The notes: a model not told the origin generated them from the letters alone. DNA of 11,802 bases from Oligoflexales bacterium (GCA_045105515.1 JBGCDR010000217.1:1-11802), one strand, 5' to 3'; counted from the stretch's first letter, positions 203 through 11,705 are shown. Translations and numbers: made by a program.

Positions 203-1360
203 CTAAACATAGGATCCACGCTCGATCTTCTCGAGGATAATCTTCTCAAATATCTGCGGATCTTTTCCATCAACTGAAAAAAAAGCCTGTTGTTCGCATC
301 GCTTACGATTTTCGATAAGCCACTCCAAGATTTTAGCTAAACCCCTATTACGTCTACTTTTGAAGAACGGATCATTTTCAAGTGCGTCCCTCGCCTTTTT
401 GATTGATCTCATCTCACTGGCATCACCAGCAATAACATCATAAGCAAATAGATCATATTTTTTAAGATCCTCAGGAAGCACACCCAAAAATTTTACTTCT
501 GGTGCTGAAAAATCCTTATTTCGAATTAATGAAGCTGCAGACCCTGCCTTAAGAGTCCGATAAATATTTTGCAGAGTATAAGCATCTAGGTCTCCAAAGA
601 AAAAAATAGGAGTTCCGAGCTGATCTTGGATTCTTTTTACCCATCCTCTTACTGCATTGGAAGGAACTCCTTGAGCACCGATCACAATACACTTATGCCG
701 ACGAGTAATACCATTGGCAACAATAGTGTTAGCAGTGCCTTCAGATTCAACTACAAGACAAAAATCAATTTTCTTTTTTGCTGACAGAGTCAGATTTTGC
801 GGACGATTCTTTGGCATAAAGGGAGAGGTCCCTAACTTTGAAAGGTCAATTTCAGCAGTTTCTCCATTAGGCATGGTTTCCGTGACCACCAAATGCTGGG
901 AGTAAGTTTGTCCCCCTCGGTCATTCGCATAACAGTTGAGCTCTTCTCGGTAGCATTCCAAAATTTCGCAGATAAAGTCAATGACACTATCAGATTCGCT
1001 CTGATCGTCGAAATCAAGTGGCTTAAGATCTGGATTCTGCTTCAGTAAACCCTTACAGATATAATACAATTCGCGCTTCGTATTAACCCCTCCGGTACCA
1101 ACATTTCTGAGGAGTATTTCTAGCATAAATATCGCTCTTGACATTTTTTGCACCGAGCCAGCATTCAATTCGGTTTTTACTTTTTTAGAACCTGGAGTTA
1201 GAAACCCAAGACCTGGTGAATAAAGCGAGTTATCAAGAGAACATTTTGTTGCTGCTAGAACAGGTCTCTTGGCCTTTTCAAGATCGTTGAGGATCTTATC
1301 ACAAAGCTGCTTTGATATATAAGGGATTTCCGATTGTTTTCTAGTTGCATATTTTACCAT
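203..1360 (-). CDS. top6A: DNA topoisomerase VI subunit A (Spo11/Top6A family)
   Basis: Catalytic Tyr motif NTKRELYY, TOPRIM Glu in VVESEG, GAQGVP, DxD motif FGDLDAY, FLGV and C-terminal KRCEQQA. Lies directly downstream of top6B. The ATG at 1360 is preceded by GGAGAGGT; the ORF track start at 1381 is an alternative. Confidence 0.93.
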   Translation of the reverse strand: MVKYATRKQSEIPYISKQLCDKILNDLEKAKRPVLAATKCSLDNSLYSPGLGFLTPGSKKVKTELNAGSVQKMSRAIFMLEILLRNVGTGGVNTKRELYYICKGLLKQNPDLKPLDFDDQSESDSVIDFICEILECYREELNCYANDRGGQTYSQHLVVTETMPNGETAEIDLSKLGTSPFMPKNRPQNLTLSAKKKIDFCLVVESEGTANTIVANGITRRHKCIVIGAQGVPSNAVRGWVKRIQDQLGTPIFFFGDLDAYTLQNIYRTLKAGSAASLIRNKDFSAPEVKFLGVLPEDLKKYDLFAYDVIAGDASEMRSIKKARDALENDPFFKSRRNRGLAKILEWLIENRKRCEQQAFFSVDGKDPQIFEKIILEKIERGSYV

Positions 1361-1392
1361 GACAGACTCGCACCTCTCCATTAATAATCAAA

Positions 1393-3585
1393 CTATTTTT
1401 TAGCTTTTTTCTTTGTTTTCTTTTTAGAGTTTTGCTTGGATTGTTTCTTAACAACTGGCTTCTTTTTGCTTGCAGAATTTTTTTTCTCCACTCTCTTACT
1501 GGATTTTTTTACTACTTTTTTAGTAGGTTTCTTACTCGTCTTATTCGGTGCGTTCTTCGTTTCCTTTTTACCAGCCTTTTTCACTACTTTTTTTGATGGT
1601 TTCTTGTTGGTCTTTTTCTCAACTTTCTTAGCTACCTTCTTGCTGTTCTTTTTCTCAACTTTCTTAGTCACCTTCTTGCTGGTCTTTTTCCCAACTTTCT
1701 TAGTCACCTTCTTACCAGCCTTTTTCACTGCTTTTTTTGAGGTACTCTTTTTGGTAGTTTTGTCTTGATTTGCTTTAGATCTCTTTTTACGGATAGCTCC
1801 ACTTTTGCTTTTTTTGCCCTCAGAGCTTGCCACTGTATTCAATTCAGATTCTGCAGTTTGCAATTTAGTCTGATTATCTTGATCGAGCTCATTATCTTCT
1901 TCTTCGCTCTCGAGTAGCGAATCCTCTTCCTGAAACACAGTTAAGCGTTTTTTCTGCCCAGCTAAATGTTCGCTTAGTCGCTCTTCAGCTTTGGCAAGCT
2001 GTTTTTCCGTTTCTTTATGATCCCTGCCGAGTATTTTCTTAAGTCCTAATTCAGCTCGTTCTTTTCGCTTTTTTGGTGCTTCTAAAATGCGACACAAAGT
2101 TTCCACTAGGATAGGGCTAAATTTTTCAATGTGCTGAGTTTTAGCTTCTAATTCTTTAGCTTTGTGCTCACGCTTGAGGTGCCTAGACAATCTCTGGCCC
2201 GCAGTCATCAACGCTCTTCGAATTTCAGTAACCAGATCGTCTGCTGCATCGATGGTTTCTTTAGAGGCATTCTTAAACTTAATAAATGGGGAGATTACAC
2301 TCACTGCCATTATATAGGGTCCTATTGGTAGCAGCCCTCTTGATTGTCTTAATCCATAGCTTTTCCAGTTAACTGAGGTGATTGCTTTTACGATGGCACA
2401 GGCCGACTTATCGAACTGTAGTGGGACTCTGTTTGCAAAACGCAAAACACCCACTGGATTATCGGAGTCACCTGAACGCTCTTGCAAACGAGCAATTGCC
2501 ACTTCAACTTGCACAGGCTTCATATCACATATAGTAGGTTTACGACTCACTACTGAGAAATAATCAGTTGCTCCTAATCTTTGTATACTTAAAGCTAAGG
2601 CATCCTCACCAACAGCCATCACCGACTGTGTTGATGGAGCTCTTAATTGGGTTTTTTGCACCCCTGAAAAAATCTTTTTAAAATCATCATCTTTCAAACT
2701 TGAAATTGTTGCATTTCTACCTTTGCCTTTCCATTGCGCATTACTCAATATTTCGTCAACAACTTTATCACTTACTCGCGAAAATCCTCTTTTCAACCAC
2801 TCACTCAATTTGTACTTATTGAATAAGTGCGCATGAGAAATGAATTCCCCTAACTTCATGGTATGCAAATGAGGTGGTAGTGCAGGAGGAATTGTTGGGA
2901 CTTGCCCGGAAATTCGTTCTATAAATTGAGATTCCATATCTGGAAGCTGATAACGCAAACTCATGTGGGGGTTCAGCAATAGGTTTCCTCTAATATATGC
3001 TAGAATTCCTCCTTCCCCATTTAATTGTAGCCTTCCATCAAATTGAAAACTAACTTTGGTGCCATGAGGTTTGTCCCAAGCCACCATCTCCTTATTCTTG
3101 ATTATACCTTTATTATTTTTGAGGTCAGTCACCACCATGCAGGATAGTGCTTTACGTTGACCTTTACATTTCGTCAGGATTTTTGCGCCTGTTGCCGATG
3201 TCTGTAGAGCCCAAGTGGTTGCTGCGGAAATACCAATTCCTTGCTGACCTCGCGAGCATCGCCCCTTCCCAAACTTAGAAGAGGCAAGGTACTCACCAAA
3301 AACCATGGGAACCTGATTACTGTCTAAACCGGGACCATTGTCTTCCACGCTCAGCTCAATCCTATCCGTATTCCGCAGTGCACCTGCACCAAGCTTTTTA
3401 ATAATGATTTCGATTTCGGGAAGGATTTGGTGATCTTCACAGGCATCAAGAGAATTATCAACCGCCTCTTTCAAAGTCGTCAAAACTGCTTTTACAGGCG
3501 AGGAAAACCCTACCTGTTGTAGGTTTTTGGCAAAATACTCTGCGGTACTACTTTTTGTAATTGCTGATACTTTTTTCTTAGCCAT
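1393..3585 (-). CDS. top6B: DNA topoisomerase VI subunit B with acidic patch and long Lys-rich C-terminal tail
   Basis: AEYFAKNLQQVGF N-terminus; GHKL ATPase motifs KEAVDNSLDA, EDNGPG, SRGQQGIG and HGT; transducer motifs RFANRVPL, VNWKSYGL and FKNASKE. Confidence 0.96.
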   Translation of the reverse strand: MAKKKVSAITKSSTAEYFAKNLQQVGFSSPVKAVLTTLKEAVDNSLDACEDHQILPEIEIIIKKLGAGALRNTDRIELSVEDNGPGLDSNQVPMVFGEYLASSKFGKGRCSRGQQGIGISAATTWALQTSATGAKILTKCKGQRKALSCMVVTDLKNNKGIIKNKEMVAWDKPHGTKVSFQFDGRLQLNGEGGILAYIRGNLLLNPHMSLRYQLPDMESQFIERISGQVPTIPPALPPHLHTMKLGEFISHAHLFNKYKLSEWLKRGFSRVSDKVVDEILSNAQWKGKGRNATISSLKDDDFKKIFSGVQKTQLRAPSTQSVMAVGEDALALSIQRLGATDYFSVVSRKPTICDMKPVQVEVAIARLQERSGDSDNPVGVLRFANRVPLQFDKSACAIVKAITSVNWKSYGLRQSRGLLPIGPYIMAVSVISPFIKFKNASKETIDAADDLVTEIRRALMTAGQRLSRHLKREHKAKELEAKTQHIEKFSPILVETLCRILEAPKKRKERAELGLKKILGRDHKETEKQLAKAEERLSEHLAGQKKRLTVFQEEDSLLESEEEDNELDQDNQTKLQTAESELNTVASSEGKKSKSGAIRKKRSKANQDKTTKKSTSKKAVKKAGKKVTKKVGKKTSKKVTKKVEKKNSKKVAKKVEKKTNKKPSKKVVKKAGKKETKNAPNKTSKKPTKKVVKKSSKRVEKKNSASKKKPVVKKQSKQNSKKKTKKKAKK
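1558..1737 (-). repeat. Coding tandem repeat: 15 consecutive KKxx tetrapeptides, including three 36-bp (12-aa) higher-order copies
   Basis: Translation runs KKAV KKAG KKVT KKVG KKTS KKVT KKVE KKNS KKVA KKVE KKTN KKPS KKVV KKAG KKET. Positions 1606-1713 hold three imperfect 36-nt units, each with (t/c)caactttcttag(t/c)(c/t)accttctt on the plus strand. Confidence 0.9.
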
Positions 3586-3760
3586 TAGCCTCTCATACTA
3601 TAAATGGGCACTTTCCCTATTGATGAATATCGTGTAAAAGTTGTCTTATTAGCTGCTCTATTGAAGCATGCAAGCACTACTACCATCTAATTTTTGCTTA
3701 AAATTCCCTACTGGGAGAATTGGATATAACCAACCTTATCTAAAACACAGGAGTAACTCC

Positions 3761-4339
3761 ATGGCTATTAACTTACCTGAGCTTCCCTACGCCCTTGATG
3801 CCCTTGCACCTCATATCTCCAAGGAGACTCTTGAGTTCCATTATGGCAAGCACCACCAAGCTTACGTAACAAATTTGGGCAAGCTTATAAAGGGAACTGA
3901 GTTCGAAAATGCCTCCTTAGAAGAAATTGTCTTAAAATCTGAGGGCGGAGTTTTTAACAATGCCGCTCAAATCTGGAACCACACTTTCTATTGGAATAGC
4001 TTATCACCAAAAGGTGGCGGAGAACCAAACGGAAAAATTGCTGACGCTATTAATAAGGACTTTGGTTCTTTTCAATCCTTCAAGGAAGCTTTTACTAAGG
4101 CAGCTGCTACTCTATTTGGTTCAGGCTGGGCATTTCTGGTCCAAGATGCAAGTGGAACATTGTCTATTACTCAGGAACCCAATGCAGGTAACCCCTTAAC
4201 TAAGGACCTAAGTCCCATCTTAACTTGTGATGTATGGGAGCATGCCTACTATATTGACTACAGAAATGCTCGCCCGAAATATATTGAAACCTTTTGGAAC
4301 CTCGTCAACTGGGACTTTGCATCAGGTAATTTGAAATAG
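3761..4339 (+). CDS. sodB: Superoxide dismutase [Fe]
   Basis: LPELPY, HYGKHH, Fe-type [14 protein letters not shown] and DVWEHAYY metal-ligand motifs. SD AGGAG at 3749-3753 supports the ATG at 3761 rather than 3668. Confidence 0.96.
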
Positions 4340-4342
4340 ATC

Positions 4343-5398
4343 TTAAGGCGTTTCCTTCTTTGGAGTTTCCAACTCCACCTCAAATTCTGGTTTTGCATCC
4401 CTGCTTATAAGCTCGAGGACAACTTGAGATATTGGCTTTTTATCATAGATAACCTGGTAGACGGCATTCGTAATTGGAGTGCTAACATTTAGACTCTTTG
4501 AGAGTTTCTGTGCAGAAAGCGTCGTCGTCACCCCTTCCGCGACAGATCCAATTTGACCTAGCGCCTCATCCAAAGAACCCCCTTGTCCCATAATGTACCC
4601 AACCGAAAAATTGCGACTTTTTTCCGAAGAGCAGGTCAAAAACAAATCACCTACACCGCCGAGCCCCTTAAAGGTAAGTGGGTTTGCTCCCACTGCAACT
4701 CCTACTCTAGTCATCTCTGCCAACCCTCGTGTGATGAGGGTAGCTCTACTATTAGCTTGAAAACCAAGACCAGCACACGCCCCAGCTGCAATAGCAATTA
4801 CATTCTTCATCGCCCCTGCGACCTCAAGTCCGATAGGGTCGTTGGAGGTGTATGCTCTAAACTTTGGTGAATGAAAAACATCTTGAGCCCACTCTGCTCG
4901 CACGGTTACCCTGGAAGCTACTGAAACACCAGTAGGTTGTTTCTTAGCGACCTCAATAGCAAAACTGGGTCCAGATAGGGAAACCATATGGTGAGAGATA
5001 AATGTTCCACAGATTTCAGCCAAAATATCCGAAGGTAGCTTTTCTGTGCCTACTTCAATTCCTTTAGCTGCGCATACTAGCAACTGATCAATATGCATTT
5101 TGTCACTTATTTGCTCTACGACCATCCGCACATATTGAGTAGGAATTGCAATGACAATCGCATCGTATGCCTGGATGGGAGCTTCTTCCAAGCGGGTAAA
5201 AGCTTTTACTCGTGGAGATAGAGATATTTCCTTTAAATATTTAGGATTTATATGCTTACTATTGATACCTTCAGCAACCTCTGGAGACCTTGCCCATATT
5301 TCAACTCGATGTCCCTGACATGCTAAATGTTGGCCAAGGCATGTTCCAAAGTTACCAGCTCCAAGCACCAAAATATGTTGGTTATTTCTTGTTTGCAT
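4343..5398 (-). CDS. gpsA: NAD(P)H-dependent glycerol-3-phosphate dehydrogenase
   Basis: Rossmann VLGAGNFGT, AAKGIE, LSGPSFAIEV, GAMKNVIAIAAG, GLGGVGDLFLTCSSEKSRN and VAEGV. GGAG lies 9 nt upstream of the ATG at 5398. Confidence 0.96.
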   Translation of the reverse strand: MQTRNNQHILVLGAGNFGTCLGQHLACQGHRVEIWARSPEVAEGINSKHINPKYLKEISLSPRVKAFTRLEEAPIQAYDAIVIAIPTQYVRMVVEQISDKMHIDQLLVCAAKGIEVGTEKLPSDILAEICGTFISHHMVSLSGPSFAIEVAKKQPTGVSVASRVTVRAEWAQDVFHSPKFRAYTSNDPIGLEVAGAMKNVIAIAAGACAGLGFQANSRATLITRGLAEMTRVGVAVGANPLTFKGLGGVGDLFLTCSSEKSRNFSVGYIMGQGGSLDEALGQIGSVAEGVTTTLSAQKLSKSLNVSTPITNAVYQVIYDKKPISQVVLELISRDAKPEFEVELETPKKETP

Positions 5399-5451
5399 TT
5401 GTCTAAGCTCCAAAGTGGCGATATACTACAGACCCCGTACCCAAGAAAAAA

Positions 5452-5469
5452 AGGATGTCATGACTTCCT
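5452..5469. promoter_or_regulatory. 18-bp operator-like palindrome in the divergent gpsA/nuoJ intergenic region
   Basis: AGGATGTCA|TGACTTCCT, with 8 of 9 positions pairing and no spacer. Confidence 0.45.
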
Positions 5470-5494
5470 ATTTATCAGTTTTACTCACTATAGT
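5465..5494 (+). promoter_or_regulatory. Candidate sigma70-like promoter for nuoJKLMN-lgt
   Basis: TTCCTA (5465-5470), 18-bp spacer, TATAGT (5489-5494), about 85 bp upstream of nuoJ. Confidence 0.3.
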
Positions 5495-5579
5495 CTTTGG
5501 CTTAGTAGCGGGCTCGATAATACGAGCTTCATCCCGCTTCTTGGCCATGGCTCTTTCCCTCCTTACCTAGGTGTGTTTT

Positions 5580-6128
5580 ATGGATGATTCCTTGATATTT
5601 TACGCGCTCGCCATCTTAAGTGTAATATTTTCGCTCCTGCTTATCTCCCAGAAGCAAGTTGTAAAAGCAACTGTTTATCTATTATTCCACTTGTGTTTCA
5701 CGGCAGGCATCTATGCATATCTTGGAGCCGAGATTGTTGCAGTGATGCAGATTATCCTTTATACCACTGCAATTTTAGCACTTTTTATATTTGCTAGAAA
5801 GCTCTCAAACTTTGAGCTAACATGCAAAGAGGAATTAATAAAACCTGGCAAGTTTGAACTCATAAGCACCTCTTTATTAATCATTGGGATGATAGTTTTT
5901 TCTTGGGCTGGATTCTTTTCGAAGGAACTTGGCTCTAAAACCAGCTCTCATCTTTTAGAAGAAATAAGTATCTTCGACTTTAGCTTACAAATATTCTCAC
6001 GTTTCAAATGGCCCCTTACAGTAAGTTTCCTCTTATTTGTGATGACAATGGTCGCCTGCAAAATCACTAGCAAAAATAGCAATAAAAGCTCTAGTTCAGC
6101 TGAAGGAGGTCCTCTTGGTCCCTATTGA
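5580..6128 (+). CDS. nuoJ: NADH-quinone oxidoreductase subunit J-like (divergent)
   Basis: About 5 hydrophobic segments. AGIYAYLGAEIVAVMQIILYTTAILALFIF matches NuoJ TM2-TM3. Lies directly upstream of nuoK. AGGTG precedes the ATG at 5580. Confidence 0.85.
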   Translation: MDDSLIFYALAILSVIFSLLLISQKQVVKATVYLLFHLCFTAGIYAYLGAEIVAVMQIILYTTAILALFIFARKLSNFELTCKEELIKPGKFELISTSLLIIGMIVFSWAGFFSKELGSKTSSHLLEEISIFDFSLQIFSRFKWPLTVSFLLFVMTMVACKITSKNSNKSSSSAEGGPLGPY

Positions 6129-6417
6129 GCACTACCTCATATTAGCATGTCTCCTATTTACGATCGGAGTGATTGGAGTATTAGTTCGAAAAAATATTTT
6201 TTTTATTTTAATGTCCATTCAATTGATTTTGAATGCAACTAACCTTGTTTTTATAGCTGCTTCAAGGCACATTGGTAATCTTGATGGAGAAGTATTCATG
6301 ATTTTCATTATCGCAATTGCGAGCTGTCAAGCAGCAGTAGGATTATCTATAGTGATTTCACTATTTCGTCAATACCGGTCTATTAATAGTGACTTTTTTA
6401 AAATTTTAAGAGGTTAA
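6115..6417 (+). CDS. nuoK: NADH-quinone oxidoreductase subunit K (E36Q/E72Q variant)
   Basis: 100 aa with 3 TMs: YLILACLLFTIGVIGVLVRKN, ILNA, DGEVF, AAVGL and C-terminal LRG. TTG start after a perfect SD AAGGAGGT; overlaps the nuoJ stop. Confidence 0.95.
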   Translation: MVPIEHYLILACLLFTIGVIGVLVRKNIFFILMSIQLILNATNLVFIAASRHIGNLDGEVFMIFIIAIASCQAAVGLSIVISLFRQYRSINSDFFKILRG

Positions 6418-6438
6418 GAAATAAGACAAGGATTAGAT

Positions 6439-7167
6439 ATGGTCTGCTTGATGCTTTTTTTACCACTATTTGGGGCTGTTATTAGTAACATCATAAATCA
6501 TAAATTCGTCAATACAAGCTTTTATTTTTTTTTATGCTTGCTAGCTTCAGCTTCGTTTTTGACAAGTATTCTGGCTTATATTGACCTTTTTAGACAGGGG
6601 CACCAAGAACTCATATTAGCAAGCATTACTTGGATAAAAATAGGATCTATCAACATTCCTTTTGAATTAATATTTAATCAACTATCAAGTATTATGTGCA
6701 TAGTTGTTACAGGCCTTGGGACCCTTGTCTTTTTTTATACTATATTTGTAAAAAAAGATATAAATGCCCTTTACTTGCGTTTTTTTTCACTTGTTAACTT
6801 GTTGGTTTTTACCCTTCTCATAGCAGTGCTTGCTAACAGCATGCCTGCGTTATTGATCTCCTGGCAAGGAGTGTTTTTTTGCAGTTTTATACTAAGCAAT
6901 CATTATTTTTCTAATAAATATTTATTCCTTAGAAACTCCCGAATTTGTCAACTATTAGAGTTGAGCACAAGACCATTTGTTTATTTATCCAGCTTATCTT
7001 TGAAAATGGATAAATTGGGTATCAACAGGTTGATTAACTCAATCTCTCACCTAATATCGGCATCTAGTGGTGTCACTAGTTTTTCTATGGAAGGAAGTAT
7101 TCAGCGCCATGCAAGCTCCATGATTTTAGGGTTTGTGGTTCTTTTAGTGCTGGCATTCGCAATTTAG
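6439..7167 (+). CDS. nuoL: Internally deleted mini-NuoL (N-terminal TM1-5 fused to C-terminal amphipathic helix and last TM)
   Basis: LPLFGA, TWIKIG beta-hairpin region, FNQLSSIMCIVVTGLG, YLRFF and SWQGVFFCSFIL match the NuoL N-terminus. RPFVYLS...MDKLGINRLIN...GSIQRHASSMILGFVVLL matches the NuoL C-terminus. It is 242 aa against ~610+ typical and sits between nuoK and nuoM. Confidence 0.85.
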   Translation: MVCLMLFLPLFGAVISNIINHKFVNTSFYFFLCLLASASFLTSILAYIDLFRQGHQELILASITWIKIGSINIPFELIFNQLSSIMCIVVTGLGTLVFFYTIFVKKDINALYLRFFSLVNLLVFTLLIAVLANSMPALLISWQGVFFCSFILSNHYFSNKYLFLRNSRICQLLELSTRPFVYLSSLSLKMDKLGINRLINSISHLISASSGVTSFSMEGSIQRHASSMILGFVVLLVLAFAI

Positions 7168-7183
7168 AATCAAAGGAACCAAG

Positions 7184-8767
7184 ATGGATTGGATAAATAA
7201 TCATATTATAACTATAAGCATCACAATTGCATTGATAACATCATTACTTTGTATAGCTGCTCCAAGCTCATTTATAGCTCTTAGAATTAGCCTTGTAGGT
7301 TCCGCAGCATGTTTTTTCTCAGCACTACATATCTGGTACCATTATCAAGCATCATTGGGAAGTATCCAATTTAATGAGTCCTATGAATGGATAGGACTAT
7401 TTGGCATTAGCTATCAGGTGGGAGTGGATGGACTAAACCTTCTATTCATAGTTTTATCAACTTTCTTAACACCTATTGTCATTCTTAGTTTGTGGGACAA
7501 GCAAATTAAGAATAAAAAAATCTTGCTAAGCTTGGTGATGTTTCTAGAAGCTTCCATTTTAGGAGCACTAGCAGCTCTAGATTTGTTCTTTTTTTATTTT
7601 TGTTGGGAAGTCATGATCATCCCCGTATACTTAATCATTGGTTTCTGGGGTGGAAAGAAACGGTTTCAAACTAGTAAAAAATTAATACTCTGTAATGCAT
7701 GCGGATCTATTTTTATGTTTGTCGGCATCATTGCTCTCTATATAAAACATACTGGAGAATTCGGGTTTTATAGTGCCAGCTTGATAGATTTATTGAAAAT
7801 TAATTCTCTAGATTTAAGCACTCAGAAGTGGTTGTTTGCTGCCTTTACTTTTGCTTTTGCTGTGAGAATCCCGGTATGGCCCCTCCACACATGGCTAGTC
7901 TCAGCATACTCACAAGCACCCTTTTTTGGCTCCATCATTCTTTCGGGAGTAGTTCTTAAAATAGCCTGCTACGGATTCTTAAGATTTGTAATCCCCTTAT
8001 TTCCTGAAGCATTTACTTTTTTTGCACCCTCGACATTAATTCTGGCGATAATTGGATTTATCTTTGTAGCACTAGCTGCTTGGAAACAAGAAGATATTAA
8101 GAAGCTAGTAGCATATGCATCAATTTCACATTTGAGTCTCGCTTTTGTCGGCTGTGTGCTTATCAATGGATGTGATATGTCTCCAGAAGCCTTAATGGGT
8201 GCAGTATACAGAATCATAAGTCATGGGATTTCATTTAGTGCACTTTTTATTATTCTATCCAACCTTTACGGTAAAAAATTGAGCTCAAAAACGAATTCCT
8301 GTGAAAAATCACAAAGACTAAATCGCTATTTAAAAGTGGCCGTTATGTTGATCACCCTCGATTGCATGGGAATTCCTGGAACCGGAGGCTTTATTAGTCA
8401 ATTTCTAATATTAAAAGAAATATACACAAGCAGTGGAGTCACAGGAACATTTATAAGCTTAGGTGTTCTTGCTAGTGCTGCTCATATGTTTAAAATCTAT
8501 AAAAAACTACTTAATTCAAAAAATCAAGCTCACACAAACTTAGTTGAGCTATCGATTAGAGAGAAACTACTCTCTATGTCGCTCATCTGTATAGCTCTAG
8601 CTATGGGAATCTATCCTGAGTTAATATTTTCAAAAGTGAGGCCGACCATTGAACATTTTGCGAATAACTATCAGACTTACCTGCTAAGAACAGAAAACGA
8701 ATTAACTAGAGTTCCTAAGCATATAAAAATGGATATTTATACATCTCTTATAAAGGGAGAAAAATAG
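7184..8767 (+). CDS. nuoM: NADH-quinone oxidoreductase subunit M (divergent)
   Basis: GVDGL, DLFFFYFCWEVMIIPVYLIIGFWGG, FAVRIPVWPLHTWL, LKIACYGFLRF, DIKKLVAYASISH, SHG, GIPGTGGF and MGIYP. Confidence 0.93.
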   Translation: MDWINNHIITISITIALITSLLCIAAPSSFIALRISLVGSAACFFSALHIWYHYQASLGSIQFNESYEWIGLFGISYQVGVDGLNLLFIVLSTFLTPIVILSLWDKQIKNKKILLSLVMFLEASILGALAALDLFFFYFCWEVMIIPVYLIIGFWGGKKRFQTSKKLILCNACGSIFMFVGIIALYIKHTGEFGFYSASLIDLLKINSLDLSTQKWLFAAFTFAFAVRIPVWPLHTWLVSAYSQAPFFGSIILSGVVLKIACYGFLRFVIPLFPEAFTFFAPSTLILAIIGFIFVALAAWKQEDIKKLVAYASISHLSLAFVGCVLINGCDMSPEALMGAVYRIISHGISFSALFIILSNLYGKKLSSKTNSCEKSQRLNRYLKVAVMLITLDCMGIPGTGGFISQFLILKEIYTSSGVTGTFISLGVLASAAHMFKIYKKLLNSKNQAHTNLVELSIREKLLSMSLICIALAMGIYPELIFSKVRPTIEHFANNYQTYLLRTENELTRVPKHIKMDIYTSLIKGEK

Positions 8768-8768
8768 C

Positions 8769-10235
8769 TTGAATTTCATACCACAGATCCACCAAGAATT
8801 CATTGATGAATATTTATCTGTATTAGTTCTTTCAATCGGATCTATGATAAATATATTAATCTCTTACAATAAAGATCTAGCAGAGAATACAATATCTAAA
8901 ACCATCTTGTTTTCTTCACTTGGATTCGCTCTGTTCTTTTGTCTACATGGAAGCCTTGGAAATCTATTAGAATACTCTGCCTTCACAAGTCTAATACAAT
9001 GCTTATTAATTACTACAACTCTTACTCTATGTTTCCTAGCATCAAGCTCCCATTTAGATTTATATATCTTTAAATATGATGTTGTTAGTTTACTACTCTT
9101 ATCTCTAGTAGGAATGATAGTTCTAGCCACGACCGATGACCTATTTACAATGTTTTTAGGAATGGAGCTTAGCTTATTAGCACTTTGCGCTCTTTCCGGG
9201 AATATTCGACCAAACCGATTTAACCAAGAAGGGGCTCTAAAGTTTTTTATCCTCGGAAGTTTCGCAAGTTCGATATTTATTTTTGGCTTAGCAATGGTGT
9301 ACGCAAGTACTGGAGAGATACACCTGAATACATTGATTAAGTCCTTAAATGGAACTTCTCAACTAGTTTTATGGGCACGCATGGGCCTTGTAGCTATGAT
9401 CGTAGGCCTCGCTTTTATACTCAATCTTTTTCCTTTTCAACTGTGGGCAGCAGATACTTATGAAGCCTCACCAACAATCATAAGTGCCTATTTATTTATT
9501 TCCTTTAAAGTAATAATTATAAGCAAATTTATTAAGATTTTTGGACTTGGCATGTCTGATTTAGAATCACCGTGGCTACAGATAATGATGCTTTTGGCTG
9601 GAATGTCCCTCATTTTTGGAACTCTACTGTCTCTGGTGCAGACCAATATTAAACGTCTCTTGGCTTACGCAGGTATCAGCCAGGGTGGATATTTAACAAT
9701 GGCAGCAGGGGCATTGTCAACTACAAGGTCTCATGCTAGCGAGTCAATATTGTTTTATCTCATAACATATACCGTGACTTCTATTCTTGCATTTGGGATT
9801 CTGATGAGGTTGGAATCCGAGCAAAAGCAAAATCTCTGCATAGATGACCTGCGAGGCTTAGCTCACACTAAACCTTGGTATGCTCTGGGTTTAACAATCG
9901 CTCTTTTTAGTTTTGCAGGAATCCCACCTACAGCAGGATTTATAGCTAAGTTTATGCTTTTCTCCTCTGCGCTACAAAATCAACAGCAGGTAATTCTTGT
10001 GGTGCTTGCTGCAATTTGTAACGCCATAGCACTATTTGTCTACCTCCGCATTGTCGCTTATATGTATATGCAATATGAACCTAATGGTAAGTTGCTCAAA
10101 TCGAAACTCTTTTTGCTACCAAGTATGATCCTAGTTTTAGCTAGCTTTGCCACGATCCTTCTTGGTACCCTGCTTCCCGGTAAAACCTTTGAATTTATCG
10201 TACCTATGTTAGAATCGAAGCATAGTAATCCTTAA
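8769..10235 (+). CDS. nuoN: NADH-quinone oxidoreductase subunit N (divergent)
   Basis: DLFTMFLGMEL, EGALKFFILGSFAS, PFQLWAADTYEASP, QTNIKRLLAY, SFAGIPPTAGFIAKF and YLRIV. TTG start 1 bp after the nuoM stop, with SD GGGAG upstream. Confidence 0.93.
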   Translation: MNFIPQIHQEFIDEYLSVLVLSIGSMINILISYNKDLAENTISKTILFSSLGFALFFCLHGSLGNLLEYSAFTSLIQCLLITTTLTLCFLASSSHLDLYIFKYDVVSLLLLSLVGMIVLATTDDLFTMFLGMELSLLALCALSGNIRPNRFNQEGALKFFILGSFASSIFIFGLAMVYASTGEIHLNTLIKSLNGTSQLVLWARMGLVAMIVGLAFILNLFPFQLWAADTYEASPTIISAYLFISFKVIIISKFIKIFGLGMSDLESPWLQIMMLLAGMSLIFGTLLSLVQTNIKRLLAYAGISQGGYLTMAAGALSTTRSHASESILFYLITYTVTSILAFGILMRLESEQKQNLCIDDLRGLAHTKPWYALGLTIALFSFAGIPPTAGFIAKFMLFSSALQNQQQVILVVLAAICNAIALFVYLRIVAYMYMQYEPNGKLLKSKLFLLPSMILVLASFATILLGTLLPGKTFEFIVPMLESKHSNP

Positions 10236-10253
10236 TATCCAATGGTAAATTCC

Positions 10254-11081
10254 ATGTATCCAATACTATTCGAATGGAATGGGTTCATTATCCCTGCATG
10301 GCATTTCTTCTATATGCTAGCTGCAATAGCTGGATTATTTTTTCTCTTTCATATAAACCTAAAATGGAACATCGAACTAAATCCCAAGCACCTATCTGGA
10401 CTCTATGCATGTTCTTACATAGGTGGTTATTTTGGTGCCCGCGCACTGTCAATATACATCGATGAATGGAATAAGGTCATAGACTATTCCGATATTTTTT
10501 GGCTGCTATTTTCCTTTGGTCCAATGACTTTTTATGGAGGGATGTTTGGTGCTAGCGCAGGAGCAATCCTGTTTGCTAATATTAAAGGAATTCATAAATT
10601 AAAGATTCTTGATCTAGGCATACCATGCGGATTACTTGGGCTTTGCATTGGCCGAATTGGATGCTTTTTAAATGGAGATGATTACGGCATTGCAATTTCC
10701 GAAATGATGACAGGTCAAACTCCATGGTGGGCCGTGACCTTTTCTAACCATTACGATAAAATTCCCAGGGTTCCTATCCAGATCATTGAAAGCTCATTGG
10801 TATTTATTCTTGTGATATCAACTTATGTTTTAAAAAATAGATTTGCAAATAAATTTTCATCAGGACTTTGCGGTTACATTTTGATAATTTCATATGCTCT
10901 AATTAGATTTTTATTAGAGTATTTCCGAGGTGATTTGAGGGGATGGGTGATCGAGGGTCACCTCAGCTCCTCTCAATTTATAAGCCTAGCTATCGTCACA
11001 ACACTAGGCCCAATTTTTATTTTCTTCAAACGAAAAAGAAAGAATTATAGATCACAAATGCCTGGCTCGTCGCAGCCATAA
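10254..11081 (+). CDS. lgt: Prolipoprotein diacylglyceryl transferase family protein
   Basis: MYPILF N-terminus, FGAR, MTFYGG, IGRIGCFLNGDDYG, PIQIIES, YALIRFLLEYFRGD and SSSQFIS. The ATG at 10242 is an alternative start. Confidence 0.9.
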   Translation: MYPILFEWNGFIIPAWHFFYMLAAIAGLFFLFHINLKWNIELNPKHLSGLYACSYIGGYFGARALSIYIDEWNKVIDYSDIFWLLFSFGPMTFYGGMFGASAGAILFANIKGIHKLKILDLGIPCGLLGLCIGRIGCFLNGDDYGIAISEMMTGQTPWWAVTFSNHYDKIPRVPIQIIESSLVFILVISTYVLKNRFANKFSSGLCGYILIISYALIRFLLEYFRGDLRGWVIEGHLSSSQFISLAIVTTLGPIFIFFKRKRKNYRSQMPGSSQP

Positions 11082-11572
11082 CCATCATCTTCTTCAATAG
11101 GTTCTCCATTTTTTGAGAAGAACAGACCTTGGATTGAGCCAAGACCAACACACCATCCTGAATATCTTGTCACACCAACAGACAGCTTCATATCTAGGGT
11201 TGGATTGATACTTGCGCCTACATCAATCGTTCCTCCAACTGCATCTCCGAGCATAAGACCAACTTCAGCTTTTCCCATTACGGAAAGAAACTCTTCTAGG
11301 CTAAACCCAACACCGGCAGCTTCTACAGTACCCTCAGCTCTACAAACTCCAAGTTTTGCGCCCAGGCCAGCCATATGCACATCTAGGTCGCGTGTATATG
11401 AATTACCAACTACATCTTCACAAGTTACAACTGCATCACCTTTTCCAAACTCAGCAACTATAGCTACGGATTTTACATTGTAGTCCATTGAACAGTGGAC
11501 AAGTGCAGCCTGTGATTGCGCAGCTGCCATTAAACCAGCAGACATTAGCAATGAAGATAATACCTTTTTCAT
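11045..11572 (-). CDS. Hypothetical secreted protein (Sec signal peptide, 6 Cys, Gly-rich beta-type body, acidic tail)
   Basis: SD GGAGGT 4 nt before the ATG at 11572. MKKVLSSLLMSAGLMAAAQSQA is a typical signal peptide ending in SQA. The ORF is 175 aa. Confidence 0.8.
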   Translation of the reverse strand: MKKVLSSLLMSAGLMAAAQSQAALVHCSMDYNVKSVAIVAEFGKGDAVVTCEDVVGNSYTRDLDVHMAGLGAKLGVCRAEGTVEAAGVGFSLEEFLSVMGKAEVGLMLGDAVGGTIDVGASINPTLDMKLSVGVTRYSGWCVGLGSIQGLFFSKNGEPIEEDDGYGCDEPGICDL

Positions 11573-11705
11573 ACCTACCTCCAAAAAATAATTGTTAATT
11601 TTCATAGATACTTTAAGATGAGGACTATCTCAATTACAACTTAAAAGAGCTTTAGTGATAGAACAGAGTTGTCTAACAATTGATAAAACCCTTTGGTAGC
11701 TTAAT

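Follow-up and report, generated by a model that had tools for sequence, protein, structure and literature searches.

A fast-evolving nuoJ-N locus in an Oligoflexales bacterium, probably a selection-retained remnant of a complex I operon

The window analysed here, a stretch of 11,802 nucleotides from an Oligoflexales bacterium (GCA_045105515.1, JBGCDR010000217.1:1-11802), carries five genes of the complex I membrane arm between gpsA and lgt. We propose that this locus is the remnant of a nuoH-J-K-L-M-N-lgt operon and was probably retained by selection as a subcomplex with a non-redox function. We are nearly certain that the remnant is without a redox partner, and its substitution pattern makes it very likely that the proteins are still under selection; we lean towards a genuine cellular function for it. 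That this function would be ion exchange is a tentative suggestion, and we give a purely structural role similar odds.

Results

Layout of the locus

As originally predicted, nuoJ, nuoK, nuoL', nuoM and nuoN are open, tightly packed ORFs (Table 1). All are on the + strand with zero internal stops, and their junctions from nuoJ through nuoN measure -14, +21, +16 and +1 nt. Pfam and NCBIfam assign names to all five; the NCBIfam cut-offs are missed by NuoJ (50.8/154), NuoL' (93.5/556) and NuoN (317.1/332.6). Four of the genes are full length (nuoJ, nuoK, nuoM, nuoN), and the nuoL' ORF spans 6439-7167 (242 aa). The start of nuoJ is probably the ATG at 5580 rather than the GTG at 5571 of the listed ORF, judging from an AGGTG upstream of 5580 and from the protein of a genus mate, which begins MDD. 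On its left, the ancestral nuoH-N operon is bounded by gpsA. The operon promoter presumably lies between gpsA and nuoJ, where a promoter scan returned no more sites than expected by chance. An assembly artefact can be dismissed: in each of 3 runs, a single contig piece spans positions 4300-11100 and shows 0 differences. The runs come from one study that may be the assembly's own source and are therefore not independent.

Table 1. Features of the nuo remnant and its neighbours in the window
Feature	Position	Strand	Evidence or remark
gpsA (glycerol-3-phosphate dehydrogenase)	4343..5413	-	PF07479/PF01210; divergent upstream neighbour
gpsA-nuoJ intergenic region	5414..5579	.	nuoH site in most full-complex relatives examined
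nuoJ (ND6 homologue)	5580..6128	+	PF00499, 60.2 bits
nuoK (ND4L homologue)	6115..6417	+	PF00420, 85.4 bits; NF004320, 104.3 bits vs cut-off 57
nuoL' N-terminal part, aa 1-160, TM1-5	6439..6918	+	NuoL profile, 94.3 bits
nuoL' C-terminal part, aa 191-239	7009..7155	+	NuoL profile, 28.3 bits, conditional E 1e-10
nuoM (ND4 homologue)	7184..8767	+	TIGR01972, 397.5 bits vs cut-off 263.8
nuoN (ND2 homologue)	8769..10235	+	TIGR01770, 317.1 bits vs cut-off 332.6
lgt (prolipoprotein diacylglyceryl transferase)	10242..11081	+	PF01790; 6 nt after nuoN

The NuoL protein had been described as truncated, and this can be refined. In an hmmsearch with a NuoL profile built from 13 relatives, nuoL' covered positions 2-160 and 598-646 of the 648 in the profile, and its N-terminal part matched E. 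coli NuoL at 3-160. The protein has thus undergone an in-frame internal deletion, which removed TM6-15 and left TM1-5 and a C-terminal anchor. The C-terminal part comprises the end of the lateral helix and the last transmembrane helix (the TM16 anchor), with the motif SGVTSFSMEGSIQRH...LGF, which is the best-conserved part among four L'-type proteins. Two further full-length proteins of this type were found by a profile search of 1.84 billion representative proteins.

The locus in related genomes

Most full-complex relatives examined have the order gpsA|nuoH-J-K-L-M-N, usually followed by lgt, and a gpsA-nuoJ gap of ~1.5 kb that holds nuoH; G029 has nuoH on another contig. The nuoN and lgt genes adjoin in 10 of the 13 full-complex loci examined, and in most relatives lgt closes the ancestral operon. 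The link between nuo and lgt is not universal: G026 has a 1.5 kb gap, and the locus is without lgt in G027, G002 and G008.

Three genomes carry reduced forms of this arrangement. In addition to the genome bearing the locus (G000; J K L' M N), its genus mate G001 has J-K-L'(236 aa)-N-lgt with a likewise short gpsA-nuoJ junction of 167 nt, and G004 has J-K-N with solely the C-terminal anchor part of NuoL (107 aa) between nuoK and nuoN. The nuoM gene is absent from this locus in both G001 and G004. At the end of the series stand G006, G018 and G022 with nothing left; in the latter two gpsA adjoins lgt with zero trace of nuo. Complete deletion of the nuo genes is thus tolerated. The same series can also be read as a slow road to loss.

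No neighbour gene is both new and common to G000, G001 and G004; the conserved ones are the ancestral gpsA and lgt. This bears on the idea that a catalytic partner so far unrecognised has taken over the module, which is close to an option of the original prediction, a module with a new partner or substrate. PF00361 proteins are known to be reused in modular fashion, antiporter-like subunits having been recruited by DabA, CupA and hydrogenase modules. A DabB-DabA pair is present in the same genome, and G004 has an additional 273-aa ORF between nuoN and lgt. With no shared new neighbour, we consider such recruitment improbable.

Missing partners and the presence of Na+-NQR

The original prediction assumed a complex I that could be uncoupled. 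The searches covered NuoA, B, D, F and H in G000, NuoA, B, D and H in G001, and NuoD and H in G004 (MAGs of 91%, 94% and 88% completeness), and control genomes were positive for each family in every case. There were 0 matches to PF00146 (NuoH), PF00346 (NuoD) or PF01512 (NuoF) in G000, to PF01058 (NuoB) or PF00507 (NuoA) in G000 and G001, and to PF00146 or PF00346 in G001 and G004. Of the quinone-reduction module and its membrane seat, the three families searched (NuoB, NuoD, NuoH) were thus not found in G000 or G001. Of the NADH-oxidising module, the family searched (NuoF) was not found in G000; some accepted complex I-like enzymes are also without the NuoE/F/G module. The full-length membrane set (NuoA, J, K, L, M, N) is likewise incomplete, as NuoA was not found and NuoL has 242 aa. 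A second canonical nuoJ-N set, which had been suggested as a check, does not occur in G000, where the sole other PF00361 match is the DabB-DabA pair.

Na+-NQR, an NADH dehydrogenase type known to pump Na+, is present in G000. Across the order, NqrA was found in 15 of 17 genomes without NuoH versus 2 of 78 with it, and COX1 in 5/5 genomes tested. Eight other Nqr-bearing, Nuo-less genomes of the order had neither this remnant nor a MrpC/NuoK match, which argues that Na+-NQR does not depend on such a module.

Could the rest of complex I have been missed, because the MAG is incomplete or because the contigs with nuoA-I were left out of the bin? G000 consists of 461 contigs at 90.9% completeness, and since the order spreads its nuo genes over two or more loci, the second might lie outside the bin. 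However, G000 is without five families, and G001, an independent MAG that is 94% complete, is without four. The locus itself, contiguous and assembled reproducibly, has no nuoH, and its NuoL carries an internal deletion. The genome also has Na+-NQR, like most NuoH-less genomes. We regard this explanation as highly improbable.

Changed and kept residues

Every codon cited in the original prediction was as stated, and alignments confirmed the residue equivalences. NuoK Q36 (CAA, 6220-6222) and Q72 (CAA, 6328-6330) stand where two membrane Glu are expected: NuoK aligns gap-free with E. coli 3rko_K (1-100 on 1-100), which has Glu at 36 and 72. In the alignment of NuoL', Q143 (CAA, 6865-6867) falls on E144 of E. 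coli NuoL. NuoM R228 (AGA, 7865) and Q406 (CAA, 8399) line up with two motifs of chain 8qby_M, those of the TM7 Lys and the TM12 Glu, and NuoN I217 (ATA, 9417) lines up with the TM7 Lys of chain 7ar7_N. These six positions (E, E, E, K, E, K) are invariant in 13/13 full-complex relatives.

The changes had been taken as systematic, isosteric de-charging by selection, a view that the data do not support. The four CAA codons are not remarkable, because CAA is the commoner Gln codon in the window's ORFs (77 vs 41), GAA the commoner Glu codon (106 vs 59), and GAA to CAA a single base change. Charged and His invariant columns were not lost in excess of other invariant columns (Fisher p 0.11-1.0 in 10/10 subunit/genome tests). 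Sister lineages differ at these sites, with Q/L/Q/H at NuoL E144, Q/L at the NuoM TM12 Glu, Q/E/Q at NuoK E72 and I/K/K/K/R at the NuoN TM7 Lys. Since charges were not preferentially lost and the replacements vary by lineage, the E-to-Q changes look like relaxed constraint, not designed de-charging.

Columns invariant in full-complex relatives are kept here at 14/30 in NuoJ, 117/188 in NuoM and 49/68 in NuoN. NuoM keeps E142 and K259, with R228, Y242 (7907) and Q406 changed; NuoN keeps E133, K158, K247 and K394, with I217 for the TM7 Lys and Q224 and Q305 for two His. Among five reduced-type NuoN proteins, the TM5 acid, K158 and the TM12 Lys are kept in 5/5, the TM8 Lys in 4/5 and the TM7 Lys in 3/5. 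Kept in all three reduced genomes are 8/12 charged invariant NuoN columns vs 18/56 other invariant ones, a comparison made without a formal test. NuoN is the subunit that the clade retains best, and most of its charge network is still in place. The relay-residue set of complex I (NuoK E36/E72; TM5 Glu, TM7/TM8 Lys and TM12 Lys/Glu of NuoL, NuoM and NuoN) is nevertheless incomplete, and an ion path in G000 is doubtful because the NuoN TM7 Lys, two NuoN His and the NuoM TM12 Glu are lost.

These data also bear on the overall interpretation first offered, in which selection has turned the membrane arm of a complete complex I into a non-pumping or low-stoichiometry scaffold. Its frames are indeed intact, the locus is not a plain decaying pseudogene, and the NuoK E36/E72, NuoL E144, NuoM TM12 Glu and NuoN TM7 Lys residues are gone. 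The complex I identity did not stand, and the selected de-charging is not supported: G000 gave no match to NuoA, B, D, F or H and G001 none to A, B, D or H, nuoH is gone from its ancestral place, and the losses show no preference for charge. With the partner families not found and NuoL TM6-15 deleted, this explanation is largely refuted and seems to us extremely improbable.

Rate of evolution and selection

The nuo genes of G000 and G001 have diverged far more than their neighbourhood, with identities of 94% for gpsA, 42% for nuoJ, 63% for nuoK, 29-30% for nuoL' and 45-46% for nuoN. The NuoJ+K+N tree path between these genomes is 2.22 vs 0.24 for gpsA+lgt, whereas two full-complex pairs gave 0.33 vs 0.34 and 0.84 vs 1.07. 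The remnant is therefore evolving about 9-fold faster than in full-complex relatives.

Such rates could be expected of a functionless relic en route to deletion, in which selection keeps the proteins harmless rather than useful: a nonsense mutation would be polar on the essential lgt, 6 nt downstream, and misfolded polytopic proteins would be harmful. Consistent with this, lgt directly follows nuoN in the window and in most full-complex loci; each loss observed is a clean deletion, either in frame or of a whole gene (nuoH, nuoL TM6-15, and nuoM in G001 and G004); and end states with nothing left exist. The invariant columns kept by different lineages also overlap almost at random. For NuoN, 28 are kept by both the g1 lineage and G004, where 24.5 and 26.0 would be expected (p 0.05 and 0.20), and for NuoJ and NuoK p was 0.22-0.85. 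This overlap is little above chance, and diffuse relaxation fits it better than a sharply defined new function.

The substitution pattern, however, is not that of simple frame maintenance, in line with the earlier claim that this is not plain decay. A simulation with stop avoidance only gave ~13% amino-acid identity and equal codon positions, whereas nuoN shows 45-46% at saturated synonymous sites (pS ~0.75) and codon-position identities of 0.55/0.73/0.38 for positions 1/2/3, so that conservation falls from position 2 to 1 to 3. A 488-codon open frame would arise by chance with a probability of 2e-13. The dN/dS ratio, proposed earlier as a check, is given as bounds, about 0.15-0.4, because dS is saturated. 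The buried charges kept in every reduced-type NuoN (TM5 acid, K158, TM12 Lys) are not demanded by harmlessness alone; NuoN of G004 keeps 34/68 invariant columns on a branch of ~10 changes per site; lgt is untied from nuo in G026, G027, G002 and G008; and the NuoL anchor piece is present in every reduced locus and protein seen. A functionless relic is, on balance, unlikely, and protein-level selection on the remnant is strongly indicated.

Discussion

Selection keeps the leftovers intact, and some other membrane job is therefore probable. We suggest the following scenario. The lineage would have lost nuoH, NuoA and the peripheral arm, and it carries Na+-NQR in place of complex I. As the quinone site would be absent, the module could no longer act as a redox-driven pump. 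With the redox drive gone, the residues by which pumping is connected to the quinone site or the subunits to one another (NuoK E36/E72, NuoL E144, the equivalents of NuoM K234/E407, and the NuoN TM7 Lys) would be freed from constraint, and may have drifted in single-base steps, differently in each lineage. Selection would hold the proximal block of NuoJ, NuoK and NuoN with the NuoL anchor helix, NuoM being an optional extra here. Most likely the block assembles into a subcomplex in the membrane and has a role outside redox chemistry.

Our best guess, for a cell whose type of NADH dehydrogenase is known to pump Na+, is that the block exchanges or conducts cations and protons through NuoN, driven by a gradient, much as Mrp antiporters do. 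We raise only as a speculative possibility that NuoJ-NuoK-NuoN and the NuoL C-terminal anchor form an autonomous, selectable membrane machine, a minimal Mrp-like exchanger or conduit for cations and protons that outlasts complex I and has been kept independently in several phyla (Oligoflexales beside Na+-NQR; Orbaceae). If true, the proximal membrane block of complex I would be a free-standing functional unit, and these bacteria a living model of pump modules working without redox drive.

Among known systems, the closest is complex I of related Oligoflexales, encoded in the split gpsA|nuoH-J-K-L-M-N-lgt operon: the genes are orthologous and in the same place and order, the folds are recognisable through Pfam and solved structures, and NuoJ, K, M and N are full length. 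The locus differs in that searches for NuoA, B, D, F and H drew no match, NuoL is without TM6-15, coupling residues are replaced and evolution is ~9x faster.

Gene sets consisting of nuoJKLMN only are already in print for Gilliamella: according to the accessible text of PMC11325843, all 95 Gilliamella genomes, and other Orbaceae, have them with the catalytic subunits absent, the authors consider them possible remnants of genome reduction, and 'nqr' has 0 occurrences in that text. The present locus similarly keeps the J-N subset while the searched nuoA-I families (A, B, D, F, H) are absent. It differs from what that text describes in its internally deleted NuoL and in a NuoM that relatives can dispense with, and Gilliamella belongs to another phylum, which implies an independent origin. 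Conservation of the orphan set across related genomes is seen in the reduced loci of G001 and G004, and in L'-type proteins (P0124, P0125) and NuoM/NuoN relatives (P0002, P0274, P0275) from other assemblies.

Mrp (Mnh/Pha) antiporters have NuoL/M/N homologues (MrpA, MrpD), a NuoK homologue (MrpC) and a NuoJ-like part, and no redox module. Three other genomes of the order that have Nqr and no Nuo contain Mrp-like operons, as judged solely from the order and sizes of the genes. In contrast, synteny makes the genes here orthologous to Nuo, not Mrp. Instead of a seven-gene mrpA-G set, in which MrpA has a C-terminal MrpB-like extension, all that occupies the ancestral nuo site is Nuo orthologues, with no MrpE/F/G-sized partners and with the MrpA-like subunit cut to TM1-5 and the anchor. 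Antiport by the remnant is a guess, not a finding.

Finally, the ND2 module of mitochondrial complex I, an assembly intermediate of the complete enzyme, consists of ND2, ND3, ND4L and ND6 with a contact to TM16 of ND5. Apart from ND3 (NuoA), which was not found here, the retained NuoN-NuoK-NuoJ and NuoL C-terminal anchor correspond to this natural sub-assembly of the membrane arm.

The window carries a nuo block, probably without the rest of complex I

The window is the entire contig C217 (11,802 bases) of G000, a metagenome-assembled genome of 6.29 Mb in 461 contigs (90.86% completeness, 4.83% contamination, 38% G+C). Its gene order is topoisomerase VI subunits A and B (reverse strand), an Fe/Mn superoxide dismutase, gpsA (reverse), nuoJ-nuoK-nuoL-nuoM-nuoN-lgt (forward, with a NuoL of 242 aa) and a conserved secreted hypothetical protein (reverse). 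The five nuo frames are open and tightly packed, as the original prediction described them: there is no internal stop, the successive spacings from nuoJ to nuoN are -14, +21, +16 and +1 nt, and lgt follows nuoN after 6 nt. Positions 4300-11100 recur in one piece and with zero differences in Logan contigs of each of three runs, which belong to one study, perhaps the source, and hence indicate reproducible assembly rather than independent confirmation. A scan for promoters and terminators showed no excess of sites over chance: the counts were 18 and 7, where shuffled sequence gave 23.0 and 4.7.

The locus had been interpreted as a candidate for an uncoupled or repurposed complex I; however, it is not complex I. 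Whole-genome family searches for NuoH, NuoD, NuoF, NuoB and NuoA gave no match in G000, and neither did those for NuoH, A, B and D in its sole genus mate, G001 (94% complete). A second canonical nuoJ-N set was also sought in G000 and is not there: the genome has a single NuoK-family match, and its PF00361 genes are nuoM, nuoN and one DabB on contig C283, located beside DabA. We take this pair to be a DAB-type inorganic-carbon uptake system, the DabA-like neighbour being named from gene order and the PF00361 match alone being computed. That a complete complex I lies hidden in this genome is thus highly improbable.

The surrounding genes have features of their own. Both topoisomerase VI subunits are encoded here by a bacterium, and subunit B ends in a tail of about 150 residues made of lysine-rich repeats (KKVxKK...), which is shared with G001 and with G004, a genome from another genus of the same family, and resembles histone H1-like tails. 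The real start of sodB is probably the internal Met ahead of AINLPELPY. The 186-aa protein found beside lgt in G000 and G001 had no match in Pfam or NCBIfam.

Coordinates of features in the window and in related loci
Feature	Location	Strand	Remarks
Topoisomerase VI subunit B	window 1393-3585	-	subunit A at 203-1381 (-); counterparts L017 9496-12742 (G001) and L018 12381-14399 (G004)
sodB ORF, 223 aa	window 3668-4339	+	N-terminus about 30 residues beyond the 192-194 aa of relatives
186-aa protein, signal-peptide-like start	window 11045-11605	-	counterpart in G001, L017 2959-3510 (+), 72-75% identical
LysR regulator / DabB-like PF00361 protein (491 aa) / large DabA-like protein	C283, locus L003 905-3661		LysR divergent from DabB
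273-aa ORF of G004	L018 4509-5330	-	between nuoN and lgt
264-aa ORF of G006	L032 10618-11412	-	between gpsA and lgt
nuoM of G009	G009:C44:4659-6224		one in-frame TGA

Stages of loss across the order

In most of 13 related Oligoflexales genomes with a complete complex I (full-complex relatives), gpsA stands next to a divergent nuoH-J-K-L-M-N operon, with lgt directly next in 10 of the 13 and the remaining nuo genes elsewhere in the genome. The window therefore carries an in-place remnant of this operon. nuoH is absent from the G000 locus, and gpsA and nuoJ are separated by 158-167 nt in G000 and G001. Two of the full-complex relatives deserve mention. G029 has nuoJ directly after gpsA (locus L027), with nuoJ-N on contig C3 and nuoH on C20, so that nuoH can move away without complex I being lost. 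The in-frame TGA in nuoM of G009 may reflect recoding, recent pseudogenisation or an error in the sequence.

The locus of G001 reads topoVI-sod-gpsA, then nuoJ (181 aa), nuoK (104), a shortened nuoL (nuoL', 236), nuoN (490) and lgt, with nuoM missing. G004 (88% complete, without NuoH or NuoD) has a nuoJ-like gene (178 aa), a nuoK-like gene (101), a 107-aa ORF, a nuoN-like gene (468), the 273-aa ORF and lgt; the 273-aa ORF has a hydrophobic N-terminal segment and is absent from G000 and G001. In two further genomes, G018 and G022, gpsA and lgt are immediate neighbours, and the gpsA-lgt intervals of these two and of G006 gave no significant Nuo profile match (best 4.4 bits). The former nuo place in G006 is occupied by a multi-helix membrane ORF of 264 aa, which may be a last, unrecognisable nuo remnant or an unrelated insertion.

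NuoH is absent in 17 of the 95 genomes of the order, and the NuoK family was matched in 6 of those 17. Three of the six (G055, G058 and G073) were rejected as remnants, their loci being Mrp-like operons by gene order, ORF sizes and tblastn; the other three are G000, G001 and G004. A tree of NuoJ, NuoK and NuoN groups these three reduced genomes (support 76/96), a grouping for which long-branch attraction is possible, and a two-gene tree of gpsA and lgt leaves the placement of G004 relative to the other two unresolved. A single and a double origin of the reduced state are both compatible with these trees. A NuoM profile scan of the genome contigs returned 80 loci, all ordinary NuoM, the best at 41% identity and none a close relative; a scan with the single sequence returned no match.

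The shortened NuoL

NuoL had been described as truncated, which can be refined to an internal deletion. With the full-length NuoL proteins of the 13 full-complex relatives as a profile, NuoL' of G000 gives two matches, one of 94.3 bits at 2-160 and one of 28.3 bits at 598-646 (conditional E 1e-10); that of G001 matches 4-158 and 590-646, and the 107-aa ORF of G004 matches 564-645 only. Since the NuoL' matches lie at both ends only, TM6-15 were cut out in frame, and the Lys, His and Asp residues of the antiporter core went with them, as did that core in its entirety. The retained C-terminal piece consists of the final transmembrane helix together with the last stretch of the lateral helix. Its motif SGxxSFxMxGSxQRH...LGF, also kept in full-length NuoL, lies in the most conserved region of NuoL'. 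In solved complex I structures NuoL TM16 contacts NuoN/ND2. Structure prediction of NuoN with the 82-aa NuoL' C-terminus, run with two alignments, returned a score close to the bottom of the scale and speaks for neither side.

Among 1.84 billion representative proteins four match the whole NuoL' profile: those of the window and G001, and P0124 (240 aa) and P0125 (223 aa), on contigs of 119.8 kb and 126.2 kb. A class-wide profile search of 131 genomes found no full-length NuoL' outside G000 and G001, and a word-based protein search returned only NuoL' itself and one unrelated partial protein.

Residue changes in the coupling network

The original prediction named six substitutions, and these are indeed present. 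CAA codons at 6220, 6328, 6865 and 8399 encode NuoK Q36, NuoK Q72, NuoL' Q143 and NuoM Q406, and the TM7 Lys is replaced by R228 in NuoM (AGA, 7865) and I217 in NuoN (ATA, 9417). The Glu and Lys equivalences proposed for all four subunits hold in alignment: NuoK pairs without gaps with its E. coli counterpart (3rko_K) over residues 1-100 of both, E. coli having Glu at 36 and 72, NuoL E144 of E. coli is the partner of NuoL' Q143, and the substitutions in NuoM and NuoN map to motifs of solved chains, those of the TM7 Lys and the TM12 Glu. In 13 of 13 full-complex relatives the six positions are E, E, E, K, E and K without exception. For each of the window's changes, a single base substitution in the most frequent codon for the ancestral residue suffices (GAA to CAA, AAA to AGA, AAA to ATA), and CAA is the commoner of the two Gln codons.

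The proposal that charges were removed systematically, by Glu-to-Gln changes repeated across three subunits, did not survive comparison. Counting columns that are invariant in the full-complex relatives, charged or His columns were not lost preferentially in any of 10 subunit/genome comparisons (Fisher p 0.11-1.0), and NuoN shows the opposite trend, all three reduced genomes keeping 8 of 12 charged vs 18 of 56 other invariant columns (raw counts). The replacements vary by lineage, with NuoK E36 as the exception: G000, G001 and G004 all have Q there. NuoK E72 is Q, E and Q in the three; the NuoL E144 position is Q, L, Q and H across the four NuoL' proteins; and the NuoM TM12 Glu is Q in the window and L in a relative, P0002. 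For NuoN we could compare five reduced-type proteins, two of them (P0274 and P0275) provisionally assigned to reduced lineages because their contigs have the same lengths as those of P0002 and P0125 and because they resemble the window's protein more closely than those of full-complex genomes do. The TM7 Lys position in these is I, K, K, K and R, while the TM5 acid, K158 and the TM12 Lys are kept in 5 of 5 and the TM8 Lys in 4 of 5. The pattern looks like relaxed constraint on coupling residues after loss of the quinone site, and an engineered non-pumping complex I, as was first envisaged, is scarcely credible.

Weak selection on fast-evolving proteins

Protein identity between G000 and G001 is 86-97% for the flanking genes, compared with 42% for nuoJ, 63% for nuoK, 29-30% for nuoL' and 45-46% for nuoN. 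Synonymous sites are saturated (pS 0.66-0.80; fourfold sites 24-53% identical), so that Nei-Gojobori estimates of dN/dS are unreliable and the ratio can only be bounded, at roughly 0.15-0.4 provided that dS is at least 2. Identity at codon positions 1/2/3 is unequal in all four genes: 0.55/0.73/0.38 in nuoN, 0.67/0.83/0.48 in nuoK, 0.59/0.64/0.44 in nuoJ and 0.47/0.61/0.30 in nuoL'. Simulated drift of nuoN that forbids only stops yields, at a position-3 identity of 0.38, about 13% protein identity with all positions equal, and a random 488-codon frame of the same composition would be open with a probability of 2e-13. The unequal codon positions, and identities above those of stop-only drift, therefore point to selection on protein sequence in both lineages since their split. 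The J, K, L' and N proteins have thus been held by selection, though weakly.

On the G000-G001 path of the tree, NuoJ+K+N accumulated 2.22 changes per site vs 0.24 for gpsA+lgt; for two pairs of full-complex genomes the values are 0.33 vs 0.34 and 0.84 vs 1.07. The remnant has thus evolved about nine-fold faster. The original claim that the changes are not random decay consequently stands as regards open frames and protein-level selection, but must be tempered by the weakness of that selection and the raised rate. G000 retains 117 of 188 invariant columns in NuoM, 49 of 68 in NuoN, 19 of 29 in NuoK and 14 of 30 in NuoJ, where full-complex sequences in a leave-one-out control retain at least 86-95%.

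These observations bear on the chief rival view, in which the block is a functionless relic whose frames are preserved because stops would be polar on lgt and misfolded membrane proteins are costly. This view accounts for the clean deletions and for a series that ends in total loss. It explains poorly, however, that buried charges are kept, that the anchor piece persists in every reduced locus, and that G004, on a very long branch, still holds 34 of 68 invariant NuoN columns; we regard it as rather unlikely.

Association with Na+-NQR

We used NqrA as a marker for Na+-NQR and found it in G000, G001, G004 and G006, and not in the full-complex relative G007. Across the order NuoH and NqrA almost exclude each other: 15 of 17 NuoH-less genomes have NqrA, as do 2 of 78 NuoH-bearing ones, a count that ignores kinship and involves five families. 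Both NuoH and NqrA are found in G028 and G072, and neither in G032 and G056. In five families of the order, Na+-NQR seems to have taken the place of complex I. A haem-copper oxidase is present in 5 of 5 genomes tested, and these bacteria therefore still respire, with Na+-NQR apparently standing in for complex I.

Possible role and comparison with known systems

We consider the locus to be, on balance, a retained and relaxed remnant in which NuoJ, NuoK, NuoN and the NuoL anchor (here with NuoM and NuoL TM1-5) persist with no redox drive and serve some non-redox role. The subunits would probably still assemble in the membrane. As a guess at this role we prefer an Mrp-like exchange of cations for protons driven by a gradient, because the subunits are homologous to MrpD, MrpC and MrpA, NuoN keeps its charges and the background is one of Na+-NQR. 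Counting against exchange are I217 and Q406 in the window's own genome and eight Nqr-bearing, Nuo-less genomes without such a module. Recruitment by a novel, as yet unrecognised partner is improbable.

Complex I is commonly viewed as present whole or not at all, and incomplete gene sets are written off as decay or assembly gaps. Here a defined subset (NuoJ, NuoK, NuoN and the NuoL anchor helix, with NuoM optional) was kept intact well beyond the loss of the redox half and its apparent replacement by Na+-NQR, over a divergence that saturates synonymous sites. Evidence of selection on such a sub-block turns what is usually dismissed as debris into a testable question. If the retained remnant conducts ions, it would be a natural minimal system for the old question of ion movement by antiporter-like subunits, could show what NuoK and NuoJ contribute without a quinone site, and would bear on the relationship between complex I and Mrp. 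If inert, it would be a staged example of the gene-by-gene dismantling of a large membrane complex. Either way, nuoJ-N matches in metagenome bins do not mean that complex I is present.

In the literature searched, supplements aside, no publication was found that analyses J-K-L'-N as an orphan module of Bdellovibrionota. Searches on Oligoflexales and NADH gave nothing relevant by title or abstract, those on partial complex I or its membrane arm nothing on bacterial orphan arms, those on Schmidhempelia with NADH dehydrogenase and nuo no match, and those on Gilliamella with the same terms nothing judged relevant. Surveys of complex I list many 'incomplete' sets, and in the sections cited here 'partial' or 'incomplete' denotes sets without NuoEFG or unspecified subsets, with orphan arms of this kind left unanalysed (PMC12361115, PMC4453560). 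A published parallel is Gilliamella, where the cited passages report nuoJKLMN in all 95 genomes and catalytic nuo genes in none, and suggest genome-reduction remnants, as proposed earlier for G. apicola and Ca. Schmidhempelia (PMC11325843). The likeness to these orphan nuoJKLMN genes of Gilliamella and the Orbaceae makes a single locus unsurprising to specialists. The present locus is a further, independent instance of a recurring orphan nuoJ-N pattern, to which it adds three details: how exactly NuoL was cut, that NuoM is dispensable, and that the remnant is associated with Na+-NQR.
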